A stretch of DNA of 31,678 bases from Nannocystaceae bacterium (GCA_041389905.1 JAWKQY010000082.1:1-31678), one strand, 5' to 3'; counted from the first letter of the stretch, positions 1,248 to 17,900 are shown. A program made the numbers and translations. The notes: generated from the letters alone by a model not told the origin.

Positions 1248-2930
1248 ATGCGTGGATTTGGCTTCGGTAGATCGATCGCCGCGCTCGCGCTCATCGCGGG
1301 TGGCTGTGCGCTCGGGGACGGAGACTCGGCGGCGCCCGGTCTCTCGGCGGGGAACCAGACGGCGACCGAGGGCGGGTCGACTGGCGCGACGGAGGGCGGC
1401 ACCGAGTCGACGAGCGGACCTTCGGGCGGGAGCGAGAGCGAGGGCGGCGACACGACGGCGCCGCCCGGCTGCGGCGACGGCGTGGTCGAGGGCGACGAGG
1501 CGTGCGACGACGGGCCCTTCAACGGCGCCGGCTACGGGTGGTGCAACGGGGTCTGCGGCGGGATCAAGGCGACCTCGCCCAACGCGATCTACGTCGCGAC
1601 GGGAGGCGACGACGCCAACGCAGGGACCCGCGACGCGCCGCTGCTGACGATCGGCGCCGCCGTGGTCAAGGCCGACGCCGTCGACGCGGACGTCTATGTC
1701 GCGAAGGGGGTCTACAGCGAGCCTGGGACGATCGACCTCATCGACGGCGTGTCGGTCTACGGCGGCTTCGACGAGGACGACGACTGGTCGCGCGCGCCCG
1801 ACAACCTCACGCGGATCGAGGTCGCCGCGCCGCTGGCGATCAGCGGCCTGCTCCTCGAGTCGACGACCGCGCTGACGCTGCTGACCGTCGCCAGCGGCGA
1901 CGGCGGCCCCGGCGAGTCGACCTACGGCGTCTTCGCCAGCGACAGCGACGGGCTCGTGATCACGGACTGCGTGATCGAGGCGGGGCGCGGCGGCGACGGT
2001 GCGGCCGGCGGCGACCAGGGCGGCGCGGGCGGCAGCGGCGGCTCCGGGATCGCCGGGCAACCTGGCTGTGAGGACAGCACCGGCCTGTGCTCGACGTGCT
2101 CGAAGCCGCTGGGGGGTCAAGGCGGGAGCTCGAGCTGCGGAGCGACCGGCGGGCCCGGCGGCGCCCCTGGCAACGGCCCAGCCTCAGGATCCCCAGGGGG
2201 CCAAGGCGGCGGCGGGACGCCGGGCGGCCCGGGGACACCGTCGGCGCAGGGCGACTGGAACACGCCGAACAGCTACTGGGGGCAGGACGGCGCCAGCGGC
2301 GACGACGGCAGCGACGGCGCCGCAGGTGCGCCTGCGTTCGGCGCGACCGGCTACACCGCGAAGGACGGCCAGGCGGGCGGCGACGGGGTCGACGGCAAGG
2401 GCGGCGGCGGCGGCGGCGGAGGCGGCGGCGGCGAGAACCTATGCGACTCCTTCGGCGGCGGCGGAGGAGGCGGCGGAGGAGGCGGCTGCGGCGGCCTCGG
2501 CGGCGGCGGAGGGGCGAGCGGCGGCGGATCCTTCGCGATCTTCCTCTGGGGATCGGACGCCGAGATCGGCTCGTGCGAGCTCCGCACGGGAGGCGGCGGC
2601 GACGGAGGTCAGGGCGGCAAGGGCCAGCCGGGAGGGGCCGGCGGCGAGGGGGGCGTCGGCAGCCTCAGCGGCGCGGGCAACAACTACGGCGGCAGCGACG
2701 AGCAGGACGACGGCTCCAATGGCGGACGCGGCGGACGCGGGGGGAGCGGAGGCGACGGCGGCCCGGGTGGCGGCGGGGCAGGGGGCCCCTCGGTCGGGGT
2801 GGTGCTCGCCGGCGGCTCGACCCCGGCGCTCGCCGAGCTCACGCACGACATCGGTCCGGCGGGGGCAGGGGGCGCCTCGGACGGGCTCTCGGGGCCGATC
2901 GGCGCCGAGGCGGAGACGCTGACGCCGTAG
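1248..2930 (+). CDS. Secreted lipoprotein: myxobacterial Cys-rich repeat, right-handed beta-helix (DUF1565-like) domain, and a long Gly-rich C-terminal region
   Basis: N-terminus MRGFGFGRSIAALALIAGGC is a signal peptide with lipobox. CGDGVVEGDEACDDGPFNG..WCNGVC matches the myxococcal cysteine-rich repeat pattern. IYVATGGDDANAGTRDAPLLTIGAAV resembles the start of a parallel beta-helix (DUF1565/pectate-lyase-like). The rest is GGxGG repeats encoded by (ggc)n-rich DNA at 2400-2520. Confidence 0.75.
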   Translation: MRGFGFGRSIAALALIAGGCALGDGDSAAPGLSAGNQTATEGGSTGATEGGTESTSGPSGGSESEGGDTTAPPGCGDGVVEGDEACDDGPFNGAGYGWCNGVCGGIKATSPNAIYVATGGDDANAGTRDAPLLTIGAAVVKADAVDADVYVAKGVYSEPGTIDLIDGVSVYGGFDEDDDWSRAPDNLTRIEVAAPLAISGLLLESTTALTLLTVASGDGGPGESTYGVFASDSDGLVITDCVIEAGRGGDGAAGGDQGGAGGSGGSGIAGQPGCEDSTGLCSTCSKPLGGQGGSSSCGATGGPGGAPGNGPASGSPGGQGGGGTPGGPGTPSAQGDWNTPNSYWGQDGASGDDGSDGAAGAPAFGATGYTAKDGQAGGDGVDGKGGGGGGGGGGGENLCDSFGGGGGGGGGGGCGGLGGGGGASGGGSFAIFLWGSDAEIGSCELRTGGGGDGGQGGKGQPGGAGGEGGVGSLSGAGNNYGGSDEQDDGSNGGRGGRGGSGGDGGPGGGGAGGPSVGVVLAGGSTPALAELTHDIGPAGAGGASDGLSGPIGAEAETLTP

Positions 2931-3157: not shown

Positions 3158-4894
3158 ATGGCAGCCACAAGCGACGGCTTCCTGCAGATTCGACGGGGAG
3201 ATCAGCTCCTCCGGGTGACCCCCATGATCGGCCCGCGCATGGTCGCCGGTCGCTCTCCCGACGTCGAGCTCGTGCTCGCCAGCGACACGGTCTCGCGGCA
3301 GCACCTCGAGGTCATCCGCGAGGCCGGGGGCTGGTGGGTCCGCGACCTCGGCAGCCGCAACGGAACGGCGGTCAACGGCAAGCAGATCGCCTCGCATCGC
3401 CTCGCCTACGGCGACGTCATCCAGGTCGAGGACTACACCCTGACCTTCGTCCGCGCGCCGAGCGAGGGGCGGGCCCCCGCGCGCAAGCCGGTCACGGCGG
3501 AGGGCTCCTCGACGCGCCTGACCCTCGTCGACAGCCCGGTCGGCTCCGTCCGCTCGCTCCGCGATCTCGGCGCGCCGAAGATCGACGCCTCACACCTCTC
3601 GCGCCTCGTCTCGCTCAGCGCCGAGCTCCTCGCCACCGAGGCCGATGACGATCGCCTCGACAAGCTGTGCAAGCTGATGGTCAGCCGCGACATGCGGGGG
3701 ACCGCGGCCGTGGCGATCCGGGTCTTCCGCACGGGGGTCGCCGACCCCGAGCTCCTCGTCCCGCCGTCGCTCACCGGCGCCGGCCAGGGCGTCCCGCACA
3801 TCTCACGGACGGTGCTCCGCGCGGTCATCACCCAGGGCACCCCTGTGATCGCCTCGACCTCGGCCGCGCCGGGCGGGAACACCGATCTGCTCAAGCTCTC
3901 GGTCGTCGTCCAGTCGATGTCCGCGGTCGCCGTGCCGATCGGCGGCGAAGGCGAGACGCTCGACGTCCTCTACGTCACCTTCCCGAGCAACTACGCGACC
4001 GCCGAGTGGCTCGCGCTGGTGTCGCTGGCCGGCGAGCTCTACCGCCAGGCCGACGCCGCCTGGGTCGCGCGCCGGGCCGCCCAGGAGCAGGCGATCCTCG
4101 AGGAGGAGCTCGAGCGCGCGCACGACATCCAGACGCGCCTCGTCCCCGACGACTTCCACCTCGGCCAGCTCGACGTCGGCTTCGGCTTCGAGGCGTGTAA
4201 GTGGGTCGGCGGCGACTACGTAGACGCCCTCCCGCTCCACGACGGCCGCGTCCTCATCACCGTCATGGACGTCTGCGGCAAGGGCCTCGAGGCCGCGCTG
4301 ATCGCCGCCGGCCTGCACACGACGGTGCACGTCCTCGTCCACGAGGGGCTCAGCCTCGCGCCGCTCGTCGCCAGCCTCAACCGCTACCTGTGTGAGACCC
4401 TGCCGGCGGCCTCCTTCGTGACGATGTGCGCCCTCGTGCTCGACCCGAACACCGGCGTCATCGAGCACGTCAACTGCGGCCACCCGCCGCCGCTCGTCGC
4501 CGGCCGCAGCGGCGTCGTCCGCGAGATCGCGCTCCACGAGCACGCGCCGCTCGGCTTCCTCGACGTCGACGAGGCGATCGTCGTCACCCGCGACCAGCTC
4601 CCGCGCGATCACATCCTCGTTCTCTACACAGACGGCCTCTCGGAGCTGCTCAACGAGCGCGACCAGATGCTCGGCGTCGAGGGCCTCAGCACCCTCATCG
4701 GCGAGGTCGGTCGGGCCGCGCCGGAGAGCTCCGCGACGCGCCTCGCCGCCGCCCTGCGCGGCGCCCTCGCCGACTACCAGGGCCGGGCCGTCGCCGCTGA
4801 TGATCTCTCGTTTATCCTGGTTCTCCGCGCCGTCCCGGCCGTGATGCGCACCGGCCCCCAACGGGTCGCGCGCTTCCCCAAGCCGGGTCGCTGA
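3158..4894 (+). CDS. FHA domain - GAF-like domain - PP2C-family (SpoIIE/RsbU-type) protein serine/threonine phosphatase
   Basis: The long track ORF 2087..4894 is Arg-rich junk until the in-frame ATG at 3158. From there the N-terminus has FHA hallmarks (GRSPDVELVLASDTVSRQHLEV...GSRNGTAVNGKQI). The C-terminal ~230 aa carry SpoIIE/PP2C metal-binding motifs (VGGDYVDAL, MDVCGKG, LYTDGLSE, DDLSFILV). Confidence 0.8.
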   Translation: MAATSDGFLQIRRGDQLLRVTPMIGPRMVAGRSPDVELVLASDTVSRQHLEVIREAGGWWVRDLGSRNGTAVNGKQIASHRLAYGDVIQVEDYTLTFVRAPSEGRAPARKPVTAEGSSTRLTLVDSPVGSVRSLRDLGAPKIDASHLSRLVSLSAELLATEADDDRLDKLCKLMVSRDMRGTAAVAIRVFRTGVADPELLVPPSLTGAGQGVPHISRTVLRAVITQGTPVIASTSAAPGGNTDLLKLSVVVQSMSAVAVPIGGEGETLDVLYVTFPSNYATAEWLALVSLAGELYRQADAAWVARRAAQEQAILEEELERAHDIQTRLVPDDFHLGQLDVGFGFEACKWVGGDYVDALPLHDGRVLITVMDVCGKGLEAALIAAGLHTTVHVLVHEGLSLAPLVASLNRYLCETLPAASFVTMCALVLDPNTGVIEHVNCGHPPPLVAGRSGVVREIALHEHAPLGFLDVDEAIVVTRDQLPRDHILVLYTDGLSELLNERDQMLGVEGLSTLIGEVGRAAPESSATRLAAALRGALADYQGRAVAADDLSFILVLRAVPAVMRTGPQRVARFPKPGR

Positions 4895-4912
4895 CCGCCG
4901 CGAGGTTTGCCG

Positions 4913-5257
4913 ATGATCGTCGAAGACAAAGAGTACAGCGTCGCCTTCGAGGCGACCGAGCGCCGCGTCCGCTTCGAGGGGCAGCTCCGCCTGCGATCCC
5001 CCCGCGACTACGGGCCTGTCCTGGAGCTCCTGCGCGCGGCGCATCAGTCGGGGCTCGACAGCCTCACGCTCGACTTCCGCAACCTCGACATGCTCAACTC
5101 GTCGGGCATCGGCACGATCGGCGCCTTCCTCGTCGAGGTGCGCAAGGCCAAGAACATGTCGATCATCGTCCTCGGCAGCGCCAACAAGCGCTGGCAGGGG
5201 CGGACGCTGGCGACGCTGAAGAAGATCTGGCCGCAGGTCGAGCTGATCATCGACTGA
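4913..5257 (+). CDS. SiaC-like (DUF1987) STAS-fold partner-switch phosphoprotein
   Basis: 114 aa. ATG at 4913 is preceded by GAGG 7 nt upstream; the track start at 4907 is TTG. The segment LTLDFRNLDMLNSSGIGTIGAFLVEV aligns with the LELDLRLLYLNTSSIKAMMDIL region of Pseudomonas SiaC as recalled from memory, where the phospho-Thr lies in the LNTSS motif; here the equivalent is LNSSG. It starts 19 nt after the PP2C gene stop, same strand. Confidence 0.6.
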   Translation: MIVEDKEYSVAFEATERRVRFEGQLRLRSPRDYGPVLELLRAAHQSGLDSLTLDFRNLDMLNSSGIGTIGAFLVEVRKAKNMSIIVLGSANKRWQGRTLATLKKIWPQVELIID

Positions 5258-5294
5258 TGATCGTCGGAGGGCGTCGACAGACGCGTCGACCCGT

Positions 5295-5325
<31 letters not shown>

Positions 5326-5355
5326 ACGGTCGCCGCGGCGAGCCGCGTGTAGCGA

Positions 5356-5387
5356 GGCGACGGCGCCCGCGGGCAGGCGCCGTCGTC
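5356..5387. terminator. GC-rich hairpin between convergent genes (candidate bidirectional terminator)
   Basis: GACGGCGCC (5359-5367) and GGCGCCGTC (5376-5384) form a perfect 9-10 bp stem with an 8-nt loop. It lies between the SiaC-like gene stop (5257) and the pseudokinase gene stop (5404). There is no U-tract, which is common in high-GC taxa. Nearby are 3 copies of the 9-bp unit gccggcctc at 5290-5316. Confidence 0.3.
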
Positions 5388-5403
5388 CGCCGCGACTTCC
5401 CGC

Positions 5404-8400
5404 CTAGGCGACGGCCAGGCCGACGCTGCGCCGGGCCTCGAAGTAGGCCTCGCTGACGCTGTAGACGATCAGCTCGGTGAGCGCGTCCTTGCCGGTGATG
5501 TTCACCGCCGACGAGCGCTGCTCGCTGCGGATCGCCTTGGCGGCGGCCTCGAGGTCGTTGCTCAGCAAGAGCCCGAGGCGGTAGCCGGCGATCGCCGCGG
5601 CCCGGGCCCAGCGCTTGACGTCCGTCTGGCCGAGCTCGCGCGCGAGCGCCTTCACCTTCTCGAGGTTCGCCGGCGGCAGGCGGTTGACGAGCTCCTGGAT
5701 GATGACCTGGACCCCTTGGCCGCCGTCGCCCGATCCGCGCTCGGCGAGCACGGAGCAGGCGACGAGGAGCTGGCCGAGGTTCTTCGGCGAGCGCTCGAGG
5801 AGGAAGAACGCGTGGTGCGGCGGGTAGAGCTCGAGGAGGTGGCGGGCGACCTCGAAGACGACCTCGCCGTCCGTCCGCTCCTGGCGCAGGAGGCTGCCGC
5901 GGGCGATCGCCACCTGCTCGACCTCGCCGCCGCGGCGACGGACGCTGTGGATCGTGATGTCGCCCGGCTCGCTGCGCAGGAAGTGGAGCTCCGGCTGCTG
6001 GACGTTGATGATCCGCGCGACGTACGAGAGCGCCTGCGCCGGCAGCGACGGGCTCTCGGCCGTGTCGATAGGCTCGCTGTCGCGGAGCTGCGGCGGCGCC
6101 GGCTTCGAACGCCAGGTCGCGAGCGCCGGGTCGACGAGGCCGAGGAGCATCGTCACCGTCGGATCCTGATCGCCGGGGAGCACCGTGCGCCGCAGCGTGT
6201 CGTCGCTCAGGCGCAGGCGCGCCTGGCGAAAGACCGCCGGCGGCCCGCTGCGGTAGAAGGCGCCCTCCTCGTCGGTCGCCTGCTTGAGGAAGAGGAGCGT
6301 GCGGGCGACGCAGTACGCCTTGTCGATCTCGTTTTGCTGGCGGTAGATGTTGTAGAGCTGGTGGTAGCTCCGGTAGTAGCTCGGATCGAGGCGGATGAGC
6401 GTGCTGTGGCTGCGGATGAGCGCGTCGGTGTACTGCGCCGGGTCCTGCTGCATCAGCATCCCGTAGAGCTCCGTGACCATGAGCTGGCGCTTGAAGTTGC
6501 TCGGATCGAGGCTCAGCGCGACCTCGAGGGCCTTGGCCGCGGACGCGTAGTCGCCGACGCGCGAGCGGTAGATCTCGGCGAGGTTGTGCCACAGGAGCTG
6601 CTTGAGCGGCGACTTGTCGTCGGCCGGCAGGCGCTTGATCATCTTGCGGTAGGCCCGCTCGAGCGCCTTCCAGTCCTTGCGCTTGGTGAGGATCGTGTCG
6701 ATCGCCTGGAACGCCTTGAGGAACTCGCGATCGTCGTCGAGGACCATGTCGAAGCGGCCGAGCGCCTCGTCGGGGTTGTCGAGGTTGTCGCGTTGGATCG
6801 CCGCCGAGGTGTAGAGGTACTTCGCCCGCCGCTTCGGCTCCTGCTCGCCGGCGATCAGCTCGTCGAGGATCGGCATCACCTCGGGCCAGCGCTTGGCCTC
6901 GGTGTGGAGGTCGAGGAGCGTGTGGAGGAGCGTCTTGTCGTCGGGGCGCAGCTCATGCGCGCGCTGGAAGGCGGCGACGGCCCGCCCCGGCTCGCCGAGG
7001 TGGTCGCGGAAGATCTTGCCGATCTCGACGAAGACGCCGGCCTTGGCGTCGCCCTCGAGCGTCGGCAGGCGCCCCTGGTGCGCCTTCAGGAGGCCGCGCC
7101 AGTCCTTGTTGTCGGCGTAGATCTCGGCGAGGCCGCTGTGCGCGTGGACGTTCTTGGGGTCGCAGCCCAGCGCCTCCTTGTAGTTCTGGATCGCGATGTC
7201 GCTGCGCCCCTGCGCCAGGGCGATCTCGGCGAGCTTGACGTGGACGCTCGCCTTGGCGTCGCCCTGGCGGCGGCCGAGGAGCTTCTCGTAGGCCATCCGC
7301 GCCTCGTCCCAGGACTTGCGGACCATGGCGAGCTCGGCGACGCCGACGAGCGCGTGGCTCGACTCGGGATCGATGTCGAGGGCGCGCTTGAAGAGCTTGC
7401 TCGCCTTCGACGTGCTGCCGATGGCGCGCGCGACCTGACCTGCGCGGACGAGCACGCCGACCTTGCTCGTGTCGCGCAGGCCGAGGTTGTCGATCTTGCG
7501 CACGAGCGCGTCGAAGATCGGCGCGGCGGCGACGTAGTTCTTCTGCTCGTAGTAGATCTTGCCGAGGATCGGCCCGACCTTCGCGTTCTCCGGGTCGATC
7601 TCGACGACCTTGGCGAACATCTGGATCGCCCGATCCTTGACCTGGAGCTTCTCGAGCCAGACGAAGCCGGCCTCGGTCGCCCGCTCGACGCGCTCGTAGC
7701 TGCTCGTCGTGTGCTCGACGATCGCCTCTAGCGCCTCGACGAGCTCGATCCACTCGTGGCGCGCGCGGAAGAGGTCGGCGAGGAGCTTGAGCGCCTCGAG
7801 GTGCCCGGGCGCGAGCTCGGTCGCCTGGTAGAGGCGGGCGATCGCCGAGTCGGTCTCGGAGAGCTTGTGGTGGAGGCCGCCGAGGTGGGCGAGCTGATCG
7901 GCGCAGCGCTTGCTGTCGGTGCACAGCTCGACGAAGCGCTCGTAGTGCGGGATGGCGTCCTCGATCTCCTGCTTGCGCTCGAGCGCCTGCGCGAGGCCGA
8001 GGTGGGCCTCGAGCGCGCCGTCGTCGGCGTCGATGAGCGCCCGGTAGATCTCGATCGCCTTGTCGTAGTTGAGGATGTGCCGGAGGTAGAGGTCGGCGAG
8101 CGAGCCCATCAGCTTGTGGACCGCGTCGTCGTCCGTGGCGAGCTCGAGGCGGCGGAGGTAGACGGCCTCGAGCTCGCGCCAGCGCTTGGCCTCGGAGTGG
8201 CGCTGGCCGAGCTGGAAGTAGGCGTAGTCGCGGCCCTGATTGATCCACTGGGACCAGCGCAGGTAGTCCTCGGAGTCCTTGGCCTCGCCGGCCATGGCGT
8301 TGAGGGCCCGATCCATCTTGTCGAGGACCTGGAGCTGATCGTCGGGGGAGGGCGCCGTCGCGAGCATCCCCTGCAGCGCCTCGATCGAGTAGAAGAGCGC

Positions 8401-9369
8401 CGAGTCCTTGGTCGGCTGCGCGCCGATCTGGCTCATCGCGCCGCCCGCCGCCGCGCCGACCGGCGCCCCCGCCGAGCCGCGCCGCGGCACCTTGCCCTCG
8501 TCGCTGATCTCGCGCAGGTCGTGCTCGAGGGCGCCGAGATCGGGGTAGCGATCCTCGGGCGCCTTGGCGAGGCAGCGCAGGATCACGGCCTCGACGGGCG
8601 GCGGGATGTCGGCGTCCGGGGCGATGTTCCGCGGCGGCGGCGGCGAGGCCATCGTGTGCTGGGTGACGACCTGGTGCGGCTCCTTGGCGGTGAAGGGCAC
8701 CGACCCGGTGAGGAGGCTGTAGAGGAGCACGCCGACCGAGTAGACGTCGGCGCGGACGTCGAAGGGCTTGCCCTCGGCCTCCTCCGGCGCGGCGAACTCG
8801 GCGACCTCGAGGAGCTCCGGGCCGCTGAAGATGTCGAGGCGCGGCGCCGGCGACAGGCCGAAGGCGGTGAGCTTGACGTGATCGAGGCCGTCGCCGGCGT
8901 CGACCATGAAGACGTTCGACGGGCGGACGCCGCCGTGGACGATCCCCTTGCCGTGGGCGACCCGCAGGGCGCCGAGCACCTGGAGGATCAGCCCCTTCGC
9001 CCGCGGCCAGGGGAAGCGCTGCGTGCCGGCCTGGAGGCTGCCCAGATCGCTGCCCTCGAGGTACTCGTAGATCAGGTAGACGGCGCCGGACTCCGTCGTC
9101 CCGTAGCTCATCAGGCGGGCGACGTTGGCGTGGCGGACGAGCGAGAGGATCCGCGCCTCGCGGAGCACCTTGGCCGCGAACTCCTCGTTCGCCGAGAGCT
9201 CCGGGTCGATGATCTTGGCGACCACCAGCTTGAGCAGGGTCGTCTGCTCGGCGAGGAAGAGCTGGCCGGAGTCACCTGGCCCGAGGTCCTCGGTGAGGGT
9301 GTACTTCTTGGCGATCACAGCGCCGACTTGCGGGACCGCGCCTCCATCAACGGGCGATGTATCGTTCAT
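5404..9369 (-). CDS. Pseudokinase-TPR giant protein: N-terminal Hanks-type kinase-like domain with degenerate catalytic motifs, followed by ~1000 aa of TPR repeats
   Basis: The track ORF 5404..9645 has an Arg-rich junk N-terminus. The plausible start is ATG at 9369 (MNDTSPVDGG...). The kinase fold is recognisable: GPGDSG Gly-loop, VVAKII with the Lys, APE-like AAPEE. The catalytic loop reads HGGVRPSN instead of HRDLKPxN, and DFG is replaced by AFG (KLTAFGLS). Downstream there are many A-x-x-Y/L helical repeats (TPR-like) to the C-terminus. Confidence 0.8.
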   Translation of the reverse strand: MNDTSPVDGGAVPQVGAVIAKKYTLTEDLGPGDSGQLFLAEQTTLLKLVVAKIIDPELSANEEFAAKVLREARILSLVRHANVARLMSYGTTESGAVYLIYEYLEGSDLGSLQAGTQRFPWPRAKGLILQVLGALRVAHGKGIVHGGVRPSNVFMVDAGDGLDHVKLTAFGLSPAPRLDIFSGPELLEVAEFAAPEEAEGKPFDVRADVYSVGVLLYSLLTGSVPFTAKEPHQVVTQHTMASPPPPRNIAPDADIPPPVEAVILRCLAKAPEDRYPDLGALEHDLREISDEGKVPRRGSAGAPVGAAAGGAMSQIGAQPTKDSALFYSIEALQGMLATAPSPDDQLQVLDKMDRALNAMAGEAKDSEDYLRWSQWINQGRDYAYFQLGQRHSEAKRWRELEAVYLRRLELATDDDAVHKLMGSLADLYLRHILNYDKAIEIYRALIDADDGALEAHLGLAQALERKQEIEDAIPHYERFVELCTDSKRCADQLAHLGGLHHKLSETDSAIARLYQATELAPGHLEALKLLADLFRARHEWIELVEALEAIVEHTTSSYERVERATEAGFVWLEKLQVKDRAIQMFAKVVEIDPENAKVGPILGKIYYEQKNYVAAAPIFDALVRKIDNLGLRDTSKVGVLVRAGQVARAIGSTSKASKLFKRALDIDPESSHALVGVAELAMVRKSWDEARMAYEKLLGRRQGDAKASVHVKLAEIALAQGRSDIAIQNYKEALGCDPKNVHAHSGLAEIYADNKDWRGLLKAHQGRLPTLEGDAKAGVFVEIGKIFRDHLGEPGRAVAAFQRAHELRPDDKTLLHTLLDLHTEAKRWPEVMPILDELIAGEQEPKRRAKYLYTSAAIQRDNLDNPDEALGRFDMVLDDDREFLKAFQAIDTILTKRKDWKALERAYRKMIKRLPADDKSPLKQLLWHNLAEIYRSRVGDYASAAKALEVALSLDPSNFKRQLMVTELYGMLMQQDPAQYTDALIRSHSTLIRLDPSYYRSYHQLYNIYRQQNEIDKAYCVARTLLFLKQATDEEGAFYRSGPPAVFRQARLRLSDDTLRRTVLPGDQDPTVTMLLGLVDPALATWRSKPAPPQLRDSEPIDTAESPSLPAQALSYVARIINVQQPELHFLRSEPGDITIHSVRRRGGEVEQVAIARGSLLRQERTDGEVVFEVARHLLELYPPHHAFFLLERSPKNLGQLLVACSVLAERGSGDGGQGVQVIIQELVNRLPPANLEKVKALARELGQTDVKRWARAAAIAGYRLGLLLSNDLEAAAKAIRSEQRSSAVNITGKDALTELIVYSVSEAYFEARRSVGLAVA

Positions 9370-9551
9370 AATCAGCCACTCGAACGATAGCCGATGTCGC
9401 GCGAGAGGTGGCCGTCGCGGCCGCGCTCGATGATTGCAGGTGCATGTTCCTGCGCGCGCGACAACGCGCGAAGCGAGGTGTTCGTGCGCGCGCATTCGCG
9501 CCCGTGAAGCCTCGCTCCGCGCGCGGACGAGCGCGCGCGCCGGCGCGCCGC

Positions 9552-10736
9552 TCAGTAGGCGACGCCGATGTCCGCGGCCTGCGAGCGCAGCATGTCGACG
9601 ACGCTGTTGTCGAAGCCGTCCGCGCCGCTGTTGTCCTCGACCCACGCGTCGCGCTTCTTCGCGACCTCGAGGATCTGCTTGTTGAGCGCCTCGCGCTGGC
9701 GGCGGAGGTCCGCGACGTAGGCCTGCTGCTCGCTCGTGCTCATCCGCTGCATGTTCTCCGGGAGCGCCTCGTTGGCGACGCGCTCGAGCTCGACGCGGCC
9801 CTCGTCGAGCGCCGAGAGGAGATCCTCGTCGTTGAGGCGCGCCGTCTTGGCGGAGTACGACGCCGCGTCCGCGGCCGCCTCGCCCGAGAGGGAGGAGCGC
9901 GCCCGCACCTTGCGGTGCGCCCTCGCCTTGTCCGTCGCGCTGCCCCAGCCGAGCGAGGTCGCGGCGAGCGAGCGGTTGAGCTCAGCGAGCTCGGCGTCGA
10001 AGGGGGAGTCGAGGCGATCGACGCCGCCGTCCTGATCGATGGTCGACATCTCGCCGCCGGCGAGCTGGGCGATCCGCGTCCACGCGGCGGCCGTCTCCGG
10101 CTGCTGCCCGCAGCGGATCGTGTTGATGACGATGCCCTTGGCCTTGGCCGCGGCCGCGAGGTCGCTGCTCGAGGGCCCGGCGTAGTCGTCGTGCGGCGGC
10201 GCGTCGCCGACGAGGAAGACGAGGCGGAGGACGTTGTCGCCCTGCTCCCAGGCCATGCCGTGGATCGCGTCGGCGAGGCCCTGGTTGACGTGCTCCGGGC
10301 CGTCGCCGCCGCCGCCCGCGGCGAGGGCGTTGAGGTCGCCCTGGAGGCCGTCGAGGTCGCGGGTGAGCGGCGAGTTGCGGGTGACGTACTCGTCGTTGAG
10401 ATCGCGGAAGGCGACGAGGCCGACGCGGATGTCCGGGCGCGGCTGCCCCGAGGCGAGGCGGTTGGCGATCGACCAGATCTTGCGCTTCGCGCCGTCGAGG
10501 AGCCCGCCCATCGAGCCCGTCGTGTCGACGACGAAGACGACGTCGATCCGCGGGCGCTGCTCCTGCTCGGGGCGGACGAGCGGCGCCTCGGGCTGCGCCT
10601 GGGTCTGCGCGCTGGCGGCGGTCGTCGGGACGTGCGTGGTGGGCTGGGGGATCGGCCAGATCTGGTTGGCGATCAGGGTCCCGCACATCAGGGAGGTGAG
10701 GGCGGCGCCGATGTAGATCATATGGGAGGTGCGCAT
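9552..10736 (-). CDS. Membrane-anchored von Willebrand factor type A (VWA) domain protein
   Basis: Start ATG at 10736 (MRTSHMIYIGAALTSLMCGTLIANQIW, a signal anchor/TM) with GGAG ~13 nt upstream. VWA/MIDAS signature at RIDVVFVVDTTGSMGG...LVAFRD...VFLVGDAPPHDD. C-terminal ~150 aa helical region. The track ORF 9552..10889 has a junk N-terminal extension. Confidence 0.8.
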   Translation of the reverse strand: MRTSHMIYIGAALTSLMCGTLIANQIWPIPQPTTHVPTTAASAQTQAQPEAPLVRPEQEQRPRIDVVFVVDTTGSMGGLLDGAKRKIWSIANRLASGQPRPDIRVGLVAFRDLNDEYVTRNSPLTRDLDGLQGDLNALAAGGGGDGPEHVNQGLADAIHGMAWEQGDNVLRLVFLVGDAPPHDDYAGPSSSDLAAAAKAKGIVINTIRCGQQPETAAAWTRIAQLAGGEMSTIDQDGGVDRLDSPFDAELAELNRSLAATSLGWGSATDKARAHRKVRARSSLSGEAAADAASYSAKTARLNDEDLLSALDEGRVELERVANEALPENMQRMSTSEQQAYVADLRRQREALNKQILEVAKKRDAWVEDNSGADGFDNSVVDMLRSQAADIGVAY

Positions 10737-10922
10737 GGTGGGTCTGCTCCTGTCTCTCGCGTGGGTGTCGCTCGGGGTGAACGCAGGATCCCCTAGGTCG
10801 GCGCAGGAGGCCTGTAAAAGCCGCGTAAAACACTCGTGCGCCGGCCGATACAAGCCGACCGCGGGCGTTCTACGCGGCACGAAGGACATGTCGACGAGGA
10901 CATGTCGCGGGCGCGGAGAGGG

Positions 10923-12107
10923 CTACTTGCAGGTCTTGAGCGCGGCCTTGACCTTCGACGACGAGCTCTTGCGCGCCGCGGCCTTCTGCGCCTCGGCGGT
11001 GCGCCCGAGCTTGCACAGCGCGAGGACCTCGATCTCGACCCGCTGCTCGACGAGCTGGCTGTCGGGGAACTCCTTGGCGTGCTGGCGGGTGTAGGCGAGC
11101 GCCTGCGCCGGGTTCGTCTTCAGCGACTTCTTCGCCTCGCTGAGCATCTGGAGCTCGATGATCACGCGGCCGGAGTCCTTCGCGCCCTTCTTCGACGAGG
11201 ACGTCGTCGTCGACGTGCTCGAGGTCGACGACGTGCTCTTCTTCTTGGTCGTCGCCTTCTTGGCCTTCTTGGTCGTCGACTTCTTCGTGGTGGTCGTCGC
11301 CGCGGCGGTCGCGTTCGTGTCGGCGCTAGCGTCTGCGCTGGCGCCCCCGGTGCCGTCTGTGCCGCTGTCTGTGTCGCCGCCGGTCGTCGTCGCGGGCTCG
11401 GGCTCGGGTTCTGGCTCTGGCTCTGGCTCTGGCTCGGGCTCGATCGGCGGCGGCTCTGGCTCTGGCTCGTCCTCGAGGAACGCGGGGACCCACGGCAGCT
11501 CGATGATCTCCTGCTGGTGGAGGACGATCGCCGCGGTCGCGCCGAGGGCGACGAAGCCGACGAGCGCGAGGATGATCAGGGGCCAGCGACGACGCTGGCC
11601 CAGGACCGCGTCAGGCCGGCCGTCGACGACGTCTTCGCCGCCCATCTCGCTCGAGAAGGTGCGACCCCGCGGCAGCGGGACCGAGCCGAGCTCGCTGGAG
11701 AACGTCCGTCCGTCGCCTGTCGCGACGTCGCCGAGCTCCGTCGAGAAGGTGCTCGCAGGTCGCCGCGCTGGGGCGCTCGGGGTCGACGCGGGGGCCGCGG
11801 GGTTCGCCTGCGCAGGCGCCTGGAAGGGGTGCTGATGCGGCTGGCCGAAGGGGTACTGGGGCGGCTGCTGCGGCTGCGGCTGGCCGAAGGGGTACTGGGG
11901 CGGCTGCTGCGGCTGCTGCTGGCCGAAGGGGTGCTGTTGCGGCTGCTGCTGCGGCTGACCGAAGGGGTGCTGTTGCGGCGGCTGTTGCGGCTGCTGTCCG
12001 AAGTTGCGGTGCTGTTGCGGCTGACCGGGTGCTGTTGCGGCTGTTGCGTTGGCCGAGGGGTGCTGTTGCGGCTGTTGCGGTTGGAAGGGAGGCTGTTGCG
12101 GCTGCTG
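10923..12107 (-). CDS. Membrane protein, 3' segment: Q/P-rich repeats (QQPQQxPFGQ), three TFSSE-like motifs, one TM helix, periplasmic (EP)n and Ser/Thr/Lys-rich linkers, small helical C-terminal domain
   Basis: The reading frame of track ORF 10923..11645 is open without stop up to 12107 but contains no ATG upstream of 11645. Hand translation upstream of 11645 gives ...QPQQPPQYPFGQPQPQQPPQYPFGQPHQHPFQAPAQANPAAPASTPSAPARRPASTFSTELGDVATGDGRTFSSELGSVPLPRGRTFSSEMGGEDVVDGRPDAVLGQRRRWPLIILALVGFVALG... The sequence is protein-like throughout. The minus-strand reading gives a Pro/Gln-rich protein, while the plus strand gives Gly/Arg/Leu junk. Confidence 0.6.
   Translation of the reverse strand, partial: QQPQQPPFQPQQPQQHPSANATAATAPGQPQQHRNFGQQPQQPPQQHPFGQPQQQPQQHPFGQQQPQQPPQYPFGQPQPQQPPQYPFGQPHQHPFQAPAQANPAAPASTPSAPARRPASTFSTELGDVATGDGRTFSSELGSVPLPRGRTFSSEMGGEDVVDGRPDAVLGQRRRWPLIILALVGFVALGATAAIVLHQQEIIELPWVPAFLEDEPEPEPPPIEPEPEPEPEPEPEPEPATTTGGDTDSGTDGTGGASADASADTNATAAATTTTKKSTTKKAKKATTKKKSTSSTSSTSTTTSSSKKGAKDSGRVIIELQMLSEAKKSLKTNPAQALAYTRQHAKEFPDSQLVEQRVEIEVLALCKLGRTAEAQKAAARKSSSSKVKAALKTCK
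11391..11470. repeat. (ggctct/ggctcg)n hexanucleotide microsatellite encoding the (EP)n linker on the minus strand
   Basis: Direct reading: ggctcgggctcgggttctggctctggctctggctctggctcgggctcg ... ggctctggctctggctcg. Confidence 0.8.
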
Positions 12108-12130
12108 TCAAGGGGCACTGCGGCTGCTGC
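11830..12130. repeat. Imperfect ~33-bp tandem repeats (ggccgaaggggtactggggcggctgctgcggctg-like), ~8 copies, encoding QQPQQPPQYPFGQ units
   Basis: Repeated ccgaagggg(t/g)(a/g)ctg(g/t)(g/t)gcggctgctgcggctg blocks are visible by eye. Confidence 0.7.
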
Positions 12131-12519
12131 TGCTGGCTGGGCCGAAGGTGCTGCGGATGTTGTTGTCCGGGGGTGGGCGAGAGGTGCGGCTGCGGCTGCG
12201 GTTGCTGCTGGGTTGGGCGAAGGGTGCGGCTGCGCTGCGTTGCTGCTGCGGTTGGGCGAAAGGGGTGCGGCTGCGCCTGGGGTTGCTGCGCGTACGCTTG
12301 CGGCTGCGGCTGCTTGCGGATGACCGTAGGGCTGCGGCTGCTGGGCGGCGGGCTGCTGGGTCGGCTGCGGCTGGCCGAAGGGATAGCCAGGGGCCTGCGC
12401 CTGAGGTTGCCCGAAGGGCTGAGCCTGCTGCGCGTGCGACGAGGCCTCCTCGGCGGAGGGGGCGCTCGGCGCCTCCGAAGCCTGTCCAGGCTGGGCGAGG
12501 GCCCTGTGGTGGGGCGTGC

Positions 12520-12910
12520 GGTGAGCCGAGGGGGGGCTGGTTGAGAGGGCTCCCGGACGCGTGAACCTGCCCGAAGGGACCGGTCGGGGGCTGGTTGAGG
12601 GCTCTGGGTCGCGGGGGCGTGCGGCGAGAGCCGAGGGGCTGGTTCGGACCGTCTCGGGCTGGTTGGGGGCTCTGGGTCGCGGGGGCGTGCTGGTTGAGAG
12701 GGCTCCCGGACGCGTGAACCTGCCGGATCAGTCGGGGGCTGGTTGAGGGCTCTGGGTCGCGGGGGCGATGCGGCGAGCCGAGGGGGAGCTGGTTGAGGGC
12801 TGCCGGACGCGTGAACCTGCCCAGAGGACCGGTCGGGGGATGGTTGAGGGCTCTGGGTCGCGGGGGCGTGCGGCGAGCCGAGGGGAGGATGGTTGAGGGG
12901 GGTCCCGGAT
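12520..12910. repeat. Long-unit tandem repeats (~100-155 bp unit, ~3 copies) within the repeat gene
   Basis: ctggttgagagggctcccggacgcgtgaacctgcc recurs at ~12537, ~12693 and ~12790 (the last as ctggttgagggctgccggacgcgtgaacctgccc). ggctctgggtcgcgggggcgtgc recurs about 5 times. Confidence 0.7.
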
Positions 12911-13194
12911 GCCGAAGTTTGAGGGCTCTGGGTCGAAAGGTTGAGCTCTGGGTCGAGGGGGCGCTCGGGAGCCGAGGGGCGGGAGGCCCGATCCATGAGC
13001 TTGGCCGAAGGCTGCGGTTGGTCGAGGGCTCTGGGTCCGGGGGCGTGCCGAGCCCAGGGGAGGCTGGTTGGGGGGCTGCCGGTTTGAGGCTGTCCGAAGG
13101 GACTTGTAGGGGAGGCGGGAGGAGAGGGCTCTGCGTCGACGGGGCGCTCTGCCCAGAGGCGGAGGCAGGCTGTCGAGGGGACTTGTAGAGGGGA

Positions 13195-13530
13195 GGCGGG
13201 AGGAAGGGCTCTGAGGCGACGTTGGTTGAGCGGCTCTGCGAACTCAGGCGGTTGGTTGAGCGGGCTCTGAGGTGGTTGGTGAGCGGGGCTTTGAGGCGGT
13301 TGGTTAGCGGGCTCCTGAGGTGGTTGGTTGAGCGGGCTCTGAGAGGTGGTGAGCAGGGCTCCGCGGCGGTTGGTTGAGCGGGCTCTGGGGGCTTGATTGA
13401 GCGGGCTCGAGGTGGTTGATTGAGCGGGCTCTGAGGGGGCTGATTGAGCGAAGGGCTCCGCGGCTGATTGAGCAGGCTCCGGGGGGCTGATTGAGCGGGC
13501 TCTGAGGGGGCTGATTGAGCGGGTTCTGAG
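13195..13530. repeat. Short-unit degenerate tandem repeat (~23-25 bp unit, ~13 copies): g(g)ttg(a/g)ttgagcgggctctgagg
   Basis: Direct reading. Spacer length varies by 1-2 nt between copies, so the encoded PLNQPPQS / AQSAPSEP / RSISPLRA peptides are the same DNA unit read in three phases. Confidence 0.75.
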
Positions 13531-13994
13531 GCGCGCGCGCGAAGGGCCCCTGGGGAGGTCCGAGGGGGGCGCTAGGCCGGTTGAGCGGGTTGGGGGCCAC
13601 GAGCCCGATGAGCGTCCCTTTCGGCGCGCCCGACGGGGTCGCGGCGGGACGCGGCGTCTGGAAGCCCGCGGGCACCTGCCACGTCGGGGCCGCCGGCTTG
13701 GCCTCGGTCTCGGGTTCAGGCTCAGGCTTCGGCTCGGGCCCGCCGACGAGCGACGGGATGTTCCACGGCTGCTTGGGATCGTCGTTGGCCACGCGACCGA
13801 GATAGTCTCACGGCCGGGCCGCGCTCGCACCATCGCGCCGTGCGCCCCCCGAGGACCCGCCTACACGCCGCTCGGCCTCCGATCTCCTCGGATGACGCCG
13901 CGGCAAACATCGCGCGCGCCGCGGGAGCGGCGCTCGACTCGGCTCGAGGTGCGGTCCGTCGCGGTCGGCGACGCAGCGGCGGCGTCGCGAGCGG

Positions 13995-14558
13995 CTAGGA
14001 CGGTTGAACGGCCGACGCCGACGGGCGCGCGCCGAGCTTGTTGCCGAACTTGTCCCCGCAGCGGGTCATGATCTCGGTGGCGCGGCTCTTGGTGATCTCG
14101 CGCGGCGACGCGTTGGTGAGCGCGTGGGCCTGGCAGCGCGCGACGTCGACGTCCTTGTTCGCGAGGCACTCGTCGCGCGCCTTGTCGAGGTCCATCGGCT
14201 TGAAGACGTTCCAGCGCTCGAGCTCGTCGGGCTTGCCGGCGAGCCGGCGCTGGACGAAGTCGTCGTAGGCCTGGCGCATCGCGTCGCAGGCGCCCGCGAG
14301 ATCGGTCGGGATGTCACCGCCGTCGGGGACGATCGTCAGGGCGTCGATGGCCTCGCGGACAGCCTGCTCGGCCTTCGCCGCGGTGCGCTCCTTGAGCCGC
14401 TTCATGTCGCGTGTCGCCTCCTTGGCGGCGGCCTCGGGGTCGGCGTTCTCAAAGGCCTTGGCGATGCTGTTGCGGGTCTTGGCCTTGTCGCCGTCGCCAC
14501 AGGCAGAGGCGGTAAGGAGCAGGCCTATGGCGATGAGCGCGGACTTGGTGGTGGGCAT
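13995..14558 (-). CDS. Small periplasmic lipoprotein of unknown function (4 additional Cys)
   Basis: Start ATG at 14558 with GGAGG 8 nt upstream. MPTTKSALIAIGLLLTASAC is a signal peptide with lipobox. The rest is Lys/Glu/Ala-rich and helical. The track ORF 13995..14660 has a 34-aa junk extension. Confidence 0.7.
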   Translation of the reverse strand: MPTTKSALIAIGLLLTASACGDGDKAKTRNSIAKAFENADPEAAAKEATRDMKRLKERTAAKAEQAVREAIDALTIVPDGGDIPTDLAGACDAMRQAYDDFVQRRLAGKPDELERWNVFKPMDLDKARDECLANKDVDVARCQAHALTNASPREITKSRATEIMTRCGDKFGNKLGARPSASAVQPS

Positions 14559-14967
14559 ACGAAGACCTCCGTGTCGAGCGAATGCGCACTCCGATATGCC
14601 ACGGGGCGAATGCGACCGACAAGGGTCGATCTCCGCGGGTGATGATGGCGCGTCGCCCACTGTCCCGTTACGCGCCGCTCGCCGCCGCGGCGGCGCCTCT
14701 CGCAGCGCGGCCGCGCCCCTCAGCCCGCCGACGCCGACCGCGACTTCGTTGACTCGTCACGGACTTTCGGCCCGCGCAGCGACGGCGGCGCGGGCGTCTC
14801 GGGCGGCGCCGCCGATCGCCCCGAGGCGCCCCTGCGCGCTCGTCTGCGCGAGGCGTGCGCTCAAAGATTTCTCTGGCGATCGTCTGGCGCTACGTCCAGG
14901 ATAGTCGGGCTGGGCTGCTTTATGCAGGGGGGCACGCGGGGAGAGGCGCCGAGGTCGGGATAAGGCG

Positions 14968-17900
14968 ATGGATCTGACGCTACTTGCGAGAGAGCGCGTG
15001 GGGAAGGTCCTGCGTGGCAAGTACCACTTGGATCGCCTCATCGACGTCGGCGGCATGGCTGCGGTCTACGAGGCGACCCACCGTAACGGTACGCGCTCCG
15101 CGATCAAGGTGCTCCACCCGAAGTACGTCTCGGACGTGCAGGCGCGGACGCGGTTCCTCCGCGAGGGCTACGCGGCCAACCACGTCGGTCACCCCGGCTC
15201 GGTCACCGTGATCGACGACGACTTCACCGAAGACGGTGAGGTCTACCTGGTGATGGAGCTCCTCGACGGCGAGTCGCTCGAGAGCTGCCTCGCCCGCGAG
15301 CGGGTGCTCCAGCCGCTCGACGTCCTCAGCATCGGCGATCAGCTCCTCGACGTCCTCACGGCGGCGCACGCCAAGGACATCATCCACCGCGACATCAAGC
15401 CCGCGAACATCATGCTGACGCGGAGCGGGATCGTGAAGCTCCTCGACTTCGGCCTCGCCCGCGTGCGCGAGCTGCCGGCGGTCGCCGGGGTCCACAGCGC
15501 GGAGATCGTCTTCGGCACGGTCGCCTACGTCTCGCCAGAGGCCGCGCGCGCGAACAACGACGCGATGGACGGGCGCGCGGACCTCTGGGCGGTCGCGGCG
15601 ACGATGTTCAAGGCGCTCACCGGCGAGACCGTCCACGGCATGGACGGGTCGGTGATGGAGCGCCTGATCCGGGCGGCGAAGGACCACGCGCGCTCGCTCG
15701 GCGAGCTCGCGCCGCACCTCCACCCGCGCGTCGTCGACGTCATCGATCGCGCCCTCGCGTTCAAGCGCGAGGATCGCTGGCCGAGCGCCGCGGTGATGCA
15801 GGCGGTCATCCAGGACGTCATCGCGGAGCTGATGGAAGAGACAGGCGTCCCGCCGTCGATCTTCTTCATGCCGGCGCTGTCGCAGATGGTCGCGGTGTAC
15901 ACGCCCTCGGGGCCGATGTCGTCGTCGTCGGCCGCGGCGACGCCGACGCCGCGGCCGATGGCCTACAACCCGCACCTGGCGACGCCGTCGCCGAGCCCGT
16001 ACCCGTACCCGGCCGCCCACGCGACGCCGTCGCCGTCGCCGTCGCCCTTCGCCAACCCGCTCAACCAAGTGCGCGGGCGGGCGCCGCAGGCCTACGTCCC
16101 GCAGACGCCGCAGGTCAACTACGCCAACCCGCTCAACCAGGTGCACGGCCGCCGGCAGCAGCAGCCGCAGCAGCAGCCGCAGCCGCGACCGCAGGCCTAC
16201 AACCCGCTCAACCAGGTCTCCGCGCCGCCGCGCTCGCACGCCCGCCCTCAGAGCGCGCCGCAAAACCAAGCCCGCGGCGCCTACGGCCCGGACGCGATGA
16301 ACCAGGCGCGCGGGCACGACCCGTACGCGCAGCAGCGCCGCCCGCCTGCGCGGCCGCAGGGCGACGGATCCTTTGACATCGACATCGACATCGACATCGA
16401 TCTCGACGTCGACCTGGGCGGCGACCCTCGCGAGCTGACGACGACGTCGGAGAACGTGGGCACGCGGCCGGCCGCGCTCGCCGACGAAGCGGAGCCGGCG
16501 CGCCCCCTTCGCCGCGCGACGACGATGCGCGACCTCGGGGCCGCGGCGGCGCGCGCCCGGGCGACGCTCGACGCCCGCCTGCGCGGCTCGACCCCGGTCG
16601 CTCCGCCAGCGCCCGAGCCAGCGCCAGCGCCAGCGCCCGCCGAGGACTTCGAGATCGACATCGGCTTCGGCGAGAGCACGAGCGCCGGCGTGGTGGTCGA
16701 GGTCGCGGAGAGCACGACCTCCGGGGTGGTGATCGACGTCGACGAGCACTACACGCCGGAGCGCCAGCCGTCTGTCTCTGGGGACATCTACGACGAGGAC
16801 GAGTTCATCGACGGCGAGGAGCTCGACTCGGGCGTCGAGTTCGTCTCTGGCGACGACGACGACGAGTACGATGCGAGCGACGCGAGCGCGGGGCGCAGGA
16901 CGTCGGAGGACACCGTCCGGATGGCGATCCCGCAGCCCAGCGAGGACACCGTCAAGCGCCCGCCGCCGGAGCTGCCAAGCGAGCAGACGGTCCGTCGCCC
17001 CTTCCCGCAGCCGCCTGTCGCGGCGGTGAGCGGTGAGATCGGCGCGCCGACGATCGCGTCGCCGCCGACGATCGCCGCGCCGCCGACGATCGCGTCGCCG
17101 CGGGGCCGAGGGGCGCCGCGGATCGCTGCGCCGCCGACGGTCGTGTCGCCGCCGACGATCGGGACGCCGCCGACGATCGGGACGCCGCCGACGATCGGGA
17201 CGCCGCCGACGATCGCCGCGCCGAGGATCGTGTCGCCGCCGACGATCGCCAGCGGTCGCAGCGAGGACACGGTCCGCGGCCCCGCGCCGCTCCCTCCCAG
17301 CGAGGACACCGTCCGCGAGCGAGGCCCGGAGGCCAGCGGCATGGAGGCGGGGATCCTCGTCGAGGCGATCGAGGACGAGGGCGACTGGCCCGAGGACGAG
17401 GTCTGGGGCGCCCCTGCGACGGGCGCAGAGGCGGCCGAGCGGCCCCCCGAGGTGATCGCCGAGGAGGCCGCGCCCGAGGTCGCCGAGGAGGAGGCGAAGC
17501 CCGCCCGGAAGTCGCTGTTCACGCCGCGCTCGAAGGGCTCGCTCGGCGGGCTCCTCGGCCTGCCGCCGATGGGCTCGCGCTTCACCGGGAGCTCGCGCCT
17601 GCAGACCAAGGCCGAGGAGGAGGAGGCGCAGCGCGAGGCGGAGGCGGCGGCGAAGCGCGAGGCAGAAGAGGCGGCGCGGCGCGAGGCGGAGGCGGCGGCG
17701 AAGCGCAAGGCAGAAGAGGCGGCGCGGCGCGAGGCGGAGGCGGCGGCGAAGCGCGAGGCCGAGGAGACGGAGAGGCGCGAGGAGGCGGCGCGGCGCGAGG
17801 AGGAGCGCAGGCCGCCGCGGCGCAGCGCGACGAGGAGCGCAGGGCGGCGGCGACGAAGCGCGCCGAGGAGCGCAAGGCGGCGCGGCGCGAGGCCGAGGCG

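Follow-up and report, generated by a model that had tools for sequence, protein, structure and literature searches.

A 31.7-kb contig from a metagenome-assembled genome of the Nannocystaceae (~71% G+C), analyzed over its whole length and called the window below, carries on its minus strand a gene for a 1321-aa protein (hereafter the scaffold) in which a kinase-like domain without its catalytic residues precedes a long tail with tetratricopeptide repeats (TPRs), and the question that it raises is what such a protein does beside a gene for a VWA protein. An earlier note on this DNA had set these two genes, together with an FHA-PP2C gene and an active Ser/Thr protein kinase (STPK) gene close by, in parallel with the PpkA/PppA/Fha1 pathway, which controls a type VI secretion system (T6SS) through threonine phosphorylation. 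We arrive at another answer, to which we give a probability of about 0.5: the protein would be a non-catalytic, GltI-like scaffold with a dead-kinase head, organizing an envelope-spanning Ser/Thr phospho-signaling assembly. This proposal starts from the observed loss of catalytic residues, purifying selection, paralogy to proteins in the GltI position, predicted protein topologies, and conserved gene order.

Because spurious open reading frames (ORFs) are frequent at such a G+C content, genes in the window were chosen by third-position GC (GC3), profile matches, and orthologues. For the scaffold and VWA genes, frame analysis gave GC3 values of 0.91 and 0.95, respectively, and these values, the Pfam matches, and full-length orthologues concur in that both are genuine genes, co-directional as the earlier note had described them. 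The 1321-aa version of the scaffold was favored by orthologue N termini over the 1304-aa call of NCBI, and an exact look-up of the protein (P0001) gave no record. Hydrophobic-segment prediction on the 1321-aa version found no transmembrane (TM) segment, and the scaffold is therefore predicted to be cytoplasmic.

The kinase profile PF00069 matched scaffold residues 23 to 283 over profile positions 1 to 260 of 263, with 113.7 bits (cut-off, 31.7), and by this match the region is a Hanks-type kinase fold. The window copy keeps the Gly-loop (G30-P-G-D-S-G35), the VAIK-type Lys (K52, in VVAKII), its salt-bridge partner αC E71, and the APE motif (194-196); subdomains IX and XI have their Asp/Arg as well. 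HGGVRPSN at 145-152 replaces HRDLKPxN, so that the catalytic Asp is lost and N152 is kept, and AFG at 169-171 replaces DFG, with loss of the Mg-binding Asp. Both the losses and the retained Gly-loop and VAIK Lys read exactly as the earlier note had claimed.

We compared this domain with eight full-length orthologues (58-76% identity) from a protein search and with full-length loci at 58-92% from a scan of GTDB species genomes, which partly represent the same genes and added L014 (92%). The DFG Asp is replaced in every 58-92% orthologue (the window, L014-L019, and P0002-P0009), the motif reading AFG, NPG, NFG, GFG, or SFG. The HRD position is mostly HGG; three orthologues have HGD, all three without the VAIK Lys, and this Lys is changed to Thr in P0002, P0003, P0004, and P0007. 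Deeper full-length homologues at 35-42% identity, including those of the cultured Nannocystis exedens, pusilla, punicea, radixulma, and bainbridge, have HR[G/A/M/V] with DFG and the Lys kept and a degenerate Gly-loop. The genome scan found no genome with both types of erosion, and the two sets therefore look like orthologues that eroded differently. No orthologue in the motif tables keeps both HRD and DFG, which bears out the previous description as a probable pseudokinase, and across the scaffold family none of the residues for catalysis or ATP binding is invariant. Besides, dN/dS (the ratio of nonsynonymous to synonymous substitution rates) was 0.26-0.39 for the kinase domain and 0.16-0.40 for the TPR and C-terminal part in four of five pairs, the domain-to-domain comparison being what counts, as the absolute values are inflated by codon bias. 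Since the loss in the catalytic triad is common to the orthologues and purifying selection resembles that on the rest of the protein, the kinase-like domain is, judging from the alignments, a conserved pseudokinase and not a product of recent decay. The 1321-aa protein is best interpreted as a non-catalytic scaffold.

The body of the scaffold points to GltI. In tblastn searches, residues 329 to 1321 aligned at 36-41% identity with the C-terminal ~1000 aa of giant proteins, the values at more than 40 loci being 36-39%. These giants, which reach 4046 aa (an N. exedens paralogue, TPR throughout), are present in essentially all Nannocystaceae (Nannocystis, Enhygromyxa, Plesiocystis, and Paraliomyxa) and in other Myxococcota. 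Directly upstream of the N. exedens giant lie a gene for a 346-aa TPR protein and one for a 698-aa GltG-like protein, the latter matching NF033760 with 366-374 bits, colinearly over positions 4 to 646 of 650, and carrying an N-terminal FHA domain and, above cut-off, the AgmX/PglI C-terminal domain. The order GltG-like gene, TPR gene, giant gene recurs at ~38 Myxococcota loci. The giant cytoplasmic TPR protein of Myxococcus xanthus is encoded by gltI (agmK) within the gltD-J cluster; the paralogous Nfs cluster has no GltI (PMC3169522). GltI has been described as TPR rich with a substantial C-terminal domain, and AlphaFold modeling has predicted six docking sites on it for the FHA domain of GltG (PMC11761067). 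Judged by position, size, and composition, the giants after gltG homologues are therefore GltI orthologues. The scaffold, by its alignment with them, appears to be a GltI paralogue, not an orthologue, in which the N-terminal TPR mass has been replaced by the pseudokinase. Giants of 3800-3970 aa at two further loci (L094 and L095) were also tried as GltI and rejected: they are preceded by a ~300-aa TPR gene and are not in glt clusters, their cluster names were uninformative, and NCBIfam has no GltI model. It is because of the gltG-adjacent giants that the link could be established instead.

The ~1000 aa of TPRs previously ascribed to the tail had to be divided: TPRs are indeed present, but they cover ~600 aa, and the last ~290 residues form a distinct α/β C-terminal domain (CTD). 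No Pfam family matched the CTD even at an E value of 10, and sequence searches against PDB and Pfam matched only its leading TPR. An AlphaFold model from an alignment with distant relatives (A2) was confident (pLDDT, the predicted local distance difference test score, of 92) and places terminal TPR-like helices first, a backing helix next, and then a sheet of three strands and one long helix. The modeled fold weakly resembles M48 zincins (6-11% identity, Foldseek E values non-significant), so the zincin assignment is tentative. At the position of the zincin HExxH motif, the window has F-E-V-A-R-H and the family consensus is F-x-x-G-[RK]-H, Phe being first in 136 of the 149 representatives and a His pair lacking; if the CTD is a zincin, it would be a zinc-less one. 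An exhaustive profile search found the CTD in 1386 cluster representatives (50% identity clusters) at E ≤ 1e-30. Among the best 150 listed, it lies at or near the C terminus, in all but one no more than 70 residues from the end, and the carriers are mostly TPR proteins of 1000-3970 aa, plus shorter, possibly partial ones. In a separate lineage, a 1959-aa protein (P0010) combines a degenerate kinase-like domain (HGD, and GGG for DFG) with a long coiled-coil insert, TPRs, and the CTD; pseudokinase heads on GltI-type bodies may thus have more than one origin or have been retained in more than one line.

That the FHA-PP2C gene does not stand beside the scaffold gene by chance is argued most strongly by the recurrence of FHA-enzymes at such genes, taken together with the predicted docking of the GltG FHA domain on GltI. 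A gene for an FHA-GAF-class III (adenylate/guanylate) cyclase is convergent to GltI-position giants at 19 loci across Nannocystaceae genera (L037:15794-17512 [-] and 18 others, L030-L077), being directly adjacent at 13 of them, with orthologues of 67-99% identity, which suggests that a cyclic-nucleotide output is coupled to the gliding scaffold. Behind one of the 3800-3970-aa CTD giants outside glt clusters lies a gene for an FHA-σ54 activator. With the window included, three different FHA-enzymes (phosphatase, cyclase, and σ54 activator) are thus encoded beside GltI-family genes.

In the window, the FHA-PP2C gene starts at ATG 3158, as in orthologues, whose starts ruled out a 935-aa ORF. It runs toward the scaffold gene, as had been noted; the directly convergent gene, however, is one for a 116-aa protein, and the FHA-PP2C gene lies upstream of it. 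The 116-aa protein matched NF047705 (slr1659 superfamily) with 109 bits (cut-off, 100) and, weakly, STAS and SiaC models. Its gene, which stops 146 bp from the stop of the scaffold gene, always follows the FHA-PP2C gene and is 76-90% identical in orthologous loci; in the literature, slr1659 has a single incidental mention. The FHA-PP2C protein most obviously pairs with this adjacent STAS-like protein, in the manner of a partner switch. Directly upstream of the FHA-PP2C gene, a 560-aa protein of no matched family is encoded in all four lineages with this flank visible (66-72% identity), and it may belong to the same unit.

The VWA protein consists of an N-terminal hydrophobic helix, a Pro-rich linker, a VWA domain (residues 63-233; VWA_4, E 1.2e-12), a helical C-terminal region, and a conserved GVAY tail. 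Its metal-dependent adhesion site (MIDAS), D71-x-T73-x-S75 ... D145 ... D178, is invariant in 28 homologues and, on these residues, is intact; the modeled fold is Rossmann-like and resembles that of the integrin β I-like domain. Positive charges lie on the N side of the hydrophobic helix, and the VWA domain is therefore predicted to be extracytoplasmic. The family has a conserved C terminus (window 9552-9566, minus strand), ...Q-A-x-x-[IV]-G-[VI]-x-[YW] with a terminal aromatic residue, which is reminiscent of a C-terminal recognition signal.

Two further genes of the minus-strand string, for a PQ-rich membrane protein and a putative lipoprotein, were overlooked in the earlier note. In L016, the PQ-rich gene forms one unbroken ORF of 727 codons (L016:6016-8199); in the window, where the gene runs from about 13792 to 10923, its frame breaks in the repeat region (~12100-13800), probably through an assembly error in low-complexity repeats, and a 740-aa ORF (11611..13833) was discarded as a wrong-frame reading of it. 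The predicted protein is bitopic. A long cytoplasmic, Q/P-rich, disordered tail with repeated [HY]PF[GA] motifs is followed by an RRRW-flanked TM helix (11585-11520; predicted N-in), and in the periplasmic part, EP repeats and then a tract rich in S/T/K precede a helical C-terminal domain of ~90 aa (from 11171). Before the TM helix, all orthologues (L014-L017 and L019) carry three (S/T)FS(S/T)E(L/M) motifs spaced 14-15 residues apart, which are TFS[ST]E[LM]G in the window (11750-11730, 11705-11685, and 11660-11640, minus strand); from their sequence, they look like phospho-acceptor or docking sites. The lipoprotein gene heads the string in three lineages, its counterparts in L016 and L017 occupying this position too (59-60% identity). 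The STPK gene retains HRDIKPAN, DFG, and AIK, in line with the activity attributed to it before, and is not merely nearby: it diverges from this same string.

Gene neighborhoods were compared in eight lineages of the 58-92% clade. The VWA gene lies directly upstream of the scaffold gene in seven of them, an order held at 58-92% protein identity, and the convergent pair of FHA-PP2C and 116-aa genes is present in five of the seven assessable lineages. The PQ-rich gene stands upstream of the VWA gene in 7/7 lineages and the divergent, apparently active Hanks kinase gene in 5/5 lineages with the respective flank visible; these two are more constant neighbors than the VWA or FHA-PP2C gene. The features of the window are listed below.

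Features of the locus (coordinates counted from the first nucleotide of the window)
Feature	Coordinates	Strand	Basis
Pseudokinase-TPR-CTD scaffold gene, 1321 aa	5404..9369 (including stop)	-	ORF, GC3, Pfam, orthologues
Kinase-like domain, aa 23-283	8521..9303	-	PF00069, E 1.3e-32
TPR array, about aa 420-1027 (preceded by conserved linker, aa 291-420)	6289..8112	-	Multiple TPR Pfam families
C-terminal α/β domain (CTD), aa ~1033-1321	5407..6273	-	Pfam-less; AF2 model
VWA/MIDAS protein gene, exported or signal-anchored, 394 aa	9552..10736	-	Pfam, orthologues
PQ-rich bitopic membrane-protein gene (frame broken here)	10923..13792	-	Frame analysis, TM prediction, orthologues
Putative lipoprotein gene, 187 aa, LTASAC lipobox-like; first of minus-strand string	13995..14558	-	Sequence
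Active-looking Hanks Ser/Thr kinase gene, 1070 aa	14968..18180	+	Pfam, E 1.8e-35
FHA-(middle region)-PP2C/SpoIIE phosphatase gene, 578 aa	3158..4894	+	Pfam FHA, E 4e-17; SpoIIE, E 7e-38
slr1659-superfamily regulator gene, 116 aa	4907..5257	+	NCBIfam NF047705
560-aa protein gene, without family match	1248-2930	+	Pfam scan
MVP-like gene, 844 aa	23979-26513	+	MVP shoulder domain and vault repeat matches

From these pieces, we propose the following mechanism. The module of residues 329-1321 would have been duplicated from the C-terminal third of GltI-type giants and joined to the dead head (residues 1-300). The scaffold would lie under the inner membrane and bind the PQ-rich cytoplasmic tail of the bitopic protein, whose periplasmic part, with its EP repeats and helical domain, would be a likely ligand or partner of the MIDAS VWA domain; the EP repeats, being acidic, would make a fitting MIDAS ligand. 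The divergently encoded active kinase would phosphorylate Thr/Ser sites on the tail, the scaffold, or both, and the pseudokinase head would partner this kinase allosterically or serve as a decoy for its docking. The FHA domain of the FHA-PP2C protein might dock on the TPR scaffold or on phospho-sites, like the predicted docking of the GltG FHA domain on GltI, and the phosphatase would reset the system and dephosphorylate the STAS-like partner as its output. The dead kinase would then be an organizer rather than an enzyme. In a bolder version, which we regard as a long shot, GltI-family TPR proteins, defined by a zincin-like CTD devoid of zinc, are general docking platforms for FHA-enzymes in Myxococcota, and here a dead-kinase head is wired via the IDR-rich bitopic protein to a periplasmic, integrin β-like MIDAS, convergent with integrin signaling through ILK, itself a pseudokinase, so that binding at the envelope leads to a Ser/Thr-phosphorylation output.

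Several points weigh against the assembly. All links between its proteins rest on gene order, and the conservation of the neighborhood, which the earlier note had named as a check, stands within the clade but not beyond it: one clade lineage (L003-5/L019) lacks the VWA gene and two lack the FHA-PP2C gene, and at the homologues of cultured Nannocystis none of the neighbors compared above was found, nor any PQ-rich copy with a hidden Markov model of the PQ-rich C terminus. The full assembly would therefore be clade specific, with a scaffold that works without it. The three minus-strand genes are spaced 182-186 bp apart, and a promoter and terminator scan of 4800-15100 gave nothing above chance and no operon evidence. 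The VWA family is wide (6466 hits), with relatives at 45-57% identity in unrelated contexts, and any coupling of an extracytoplasmic VWA domain to a cytoplasmic scaffold must be indirect. Furthermore, the (S/T)FSxE(L/M) motif does not fit the classic pT+3 preference of FHA domains, and the GltI kinship runs through the gltG-adjacent giants rather than through M. xanthus GltI (MXAN_4863) itself.

Some of these points would be expected if the scaffold were a GltI-like organizer of another process and its neighbors bystanders, the FHA-PP2C protein working only with its STAS-like partner and the VWA protein being an independent adhesin or binder. The ~180-bp gaps, the lone VWA relatives at 45-57% identity elsewhere, and the cultured Nannocystis scaffolds without any of these neighbors agree with this, as does the fact that the FHA-PP2C and 116-aa genes always occur together and on the opposite strand. 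We nevertheless consider it unlikely, as it leaves unaccounted for the VWA-scaffold order kept in seven of eight lineages down to 58% identity, the PQ-rich gene wherever its flank is visible, and an FHA-enzyme beside a CTD-family gene in three independent forms.

It is quite unlikely that the locus encodes a structural Glt-like envelope machine for motility, secretion, or adhesion, with the scaffold as GltI, the PQ-rich protein as GltJ or GltG, and the VWA protein as a CglB-like adhesin. The paralogy to GltI-position giants would fit such a machine, and so would a bitopic protein in which long stretches of disorder flank the membrane on either side, as in GltG and GltJ (PMC11761067). CglB, the adhesin of the Glt machine, is also a MIDAS VWA protein, with a lipobox Cys, about 17 cysteines, and a β-jellyroll besides the VWA domain (PMC9946355). 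However, the window has no motor (AglRQS/TolQR-like), outer membrane barrel, or other Glt genes, and the bitopic protein has no AgmX/PglI C-terminal domain. The VWA protein was itself rejected as CglB: it has two cysteines, no canonical lipobox, and a helical second domain in place of the β-jellyroll.

A kinase-like domain that keeps some atypical activity, as a nucleotide-binding switch or by non-canonical catalysis of the WNK, CASK, or SelO type, is highly improbable. The window copy keeps the Gly-loop, K52, E71, Asn152, and APE, but four close orthologues have lost the Lys and the 35-42% clade the Gly-loop, one clade is without the DFG Asp and the other without the HRD Asp, and no residue for catalysis or ATP binding stays constant throughout the family. 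Finally, a PpkA/PppA/Fha1-type pathway controlling a secretion apparatus encoded elsewhere is barely credible: VWA, STPK, PP2C, and FHA do lie within 16 kb, and the VWA domain is predicted to be periplasmic, as in PpkA, but the TagH/Fha1 model TIGR03354 reached 32.3 bits against a cut-off of 120, the FHA domain is fused to a phosphatase and the VWA domain to no kinase, and the scaffold is most closely related to GltI-position proteins.

Outside this locus, the window also encodes a bacterial MVP-like protein, with matches to the Major Vault Protein shoulder (E 8.8e-26) and the vault repeat (E 1.3e-08), which is unusual outside eukaryotes.

In myxobacteria, pseudokinases and kinase-TPR fusions come as no surprise. 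Bacterial pseudokinases are barely studied, and no bacterial phylum has larger kinomes than Myxococcota; in this family, each lineage has lost catalytic residues of its own while purifying selection was kept up, the mark of a repurposed fold. Three things are new here and open to test: the kinship with GltI, the zincin-like domain that had no annotation, and the repeated pairing with FHA-enzymes. The assignment of the scaffold tail to the GltI family defines the unannotated, Pfam-less CTD of that family, and the pairing of GltI-family and FHA-enzyme genes gives independent genomic support for the structure-predicted docking of an FHA domain on GltI. It suggests that phospho-threonine signaling regulates GltI-type scaffolds, which can be tested in Myxococcus and Nannocystis. 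Only an uncultured Nannocystaceae clade carries the full assembly.

Among known systems, the H1-T6SS of Pseudomonas aeruginosa was the one first invoked for this locus. Its PpkA has a periplasmic VWA domain, and a Hanks-type domain, PP2C, and FHA are present in both. The likeness proved to be one of a shared domain list only. PpkA is a single active kinase fused to its VWA domain, and Fha1 is stand-alone and associated with the T6SS core, whereas the window VWA protein is separate, its kinase-like neighbor is inactive and lacks a TM helix, and the two are predicted to lie in different compartments. Profile scans found no T6SS families among the genes of the window, which agrees with the absence of T6SS structural genes reported before. 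Kinase, PP2C, and stand-alone vWA genes are also linked in the actinobacterial GAP1-N2 GTPase and vWA-MoxR systems (Kaur et al. 2020, PMC7159879). Here, there is no GTPase, MoxR AAA+, or VMAP, and the kinase-like domain beside the VWA gene is dead; the MoxR AAA+ hallmark of vWA-MoxR/Bat systems (with DUF58/VMAP) was found neither in the window nor in orthologous loci. A defense-system reading was dropped as well, since PADLOC matched only the kinase-like domains of the scaffold and the active kinase, and its models gave no match for the VWA, FHA-PP2C, 116-aa, or lipoprotein products.

A dead Hanks domain, an active Hanks kinase, and an FHA protein act together in Mycobacterium tuberculosis, in which PknB phosphorylates the pseudokinase region of MviN (MurJ) and FhaA is recruited (PMC12599244), and this provides a precedent for the circuit proposed here. 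That system belongs to another phylum, architecture, and family (ActPs3), and the MviN pseudokinase is joined to a lipid II flippase instead of TPRs. The catalogue of bacterial pseudokinases holds seven families (ActPs1-3, GLW, CP1, DYD, and DLHK), none from Myxococcota, and notes TPR tails only for canonical Myxo1 kinases (bioRxiv 10.1101/2025.01.12.632604). Compared by description only, these families share with the scaffold a Hanks fold with VAIK/HRD/DFG substitutions; here, different lineages lose different residues of the triad, and the tail is GltI derived with a zincin-like end.

The FHA-PP2C and 116-aa pair, a SpoIIE-family PP2C gene followed by an slr1659-superfamily gene, resembles partner-switching modules (RsbU/SpoIIE-type PP2C with STAS; SiaA/SiaC). 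It differs in that the window has no GHKL-type switch kinase (no HATPase_c protein) and no sigma factor nearby, and in that its phosphatase carries an FHA domain, which points to a Hanks-kinase input. The CTD differs from the M48 peptidases (BepA/YfgC with TPRs, Ste24/ZMPSTE24, and HtpX) in being predicted to be cytoplasmic and in having neither HExxH nor a match at the sequence level.

The known system closest to the scaffold is GltI (AgmK, MXAN_4863). The scaffold is one third of the size, with the N-terminal ~2700 aa of TPRs replaced by the pseudokinase, and it lies outside a glt cluster, with VWA, PQ-rich bitopic protein, STPK, and FHA-PP2C genes as neighbors; Pfam and NCBIfam scans found no glt genes among the genes of the window. 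Its linker, TPR array, and CTD, however, match those of the GltI-position giants, and FHA-enzyme genes flank the scaffold as well as these giants. Thus, we set aside the reading as a T6SS-type switch and regard the predicted docking of the GltG FHA domain on GltI in the gliding machinery as the better analogue.

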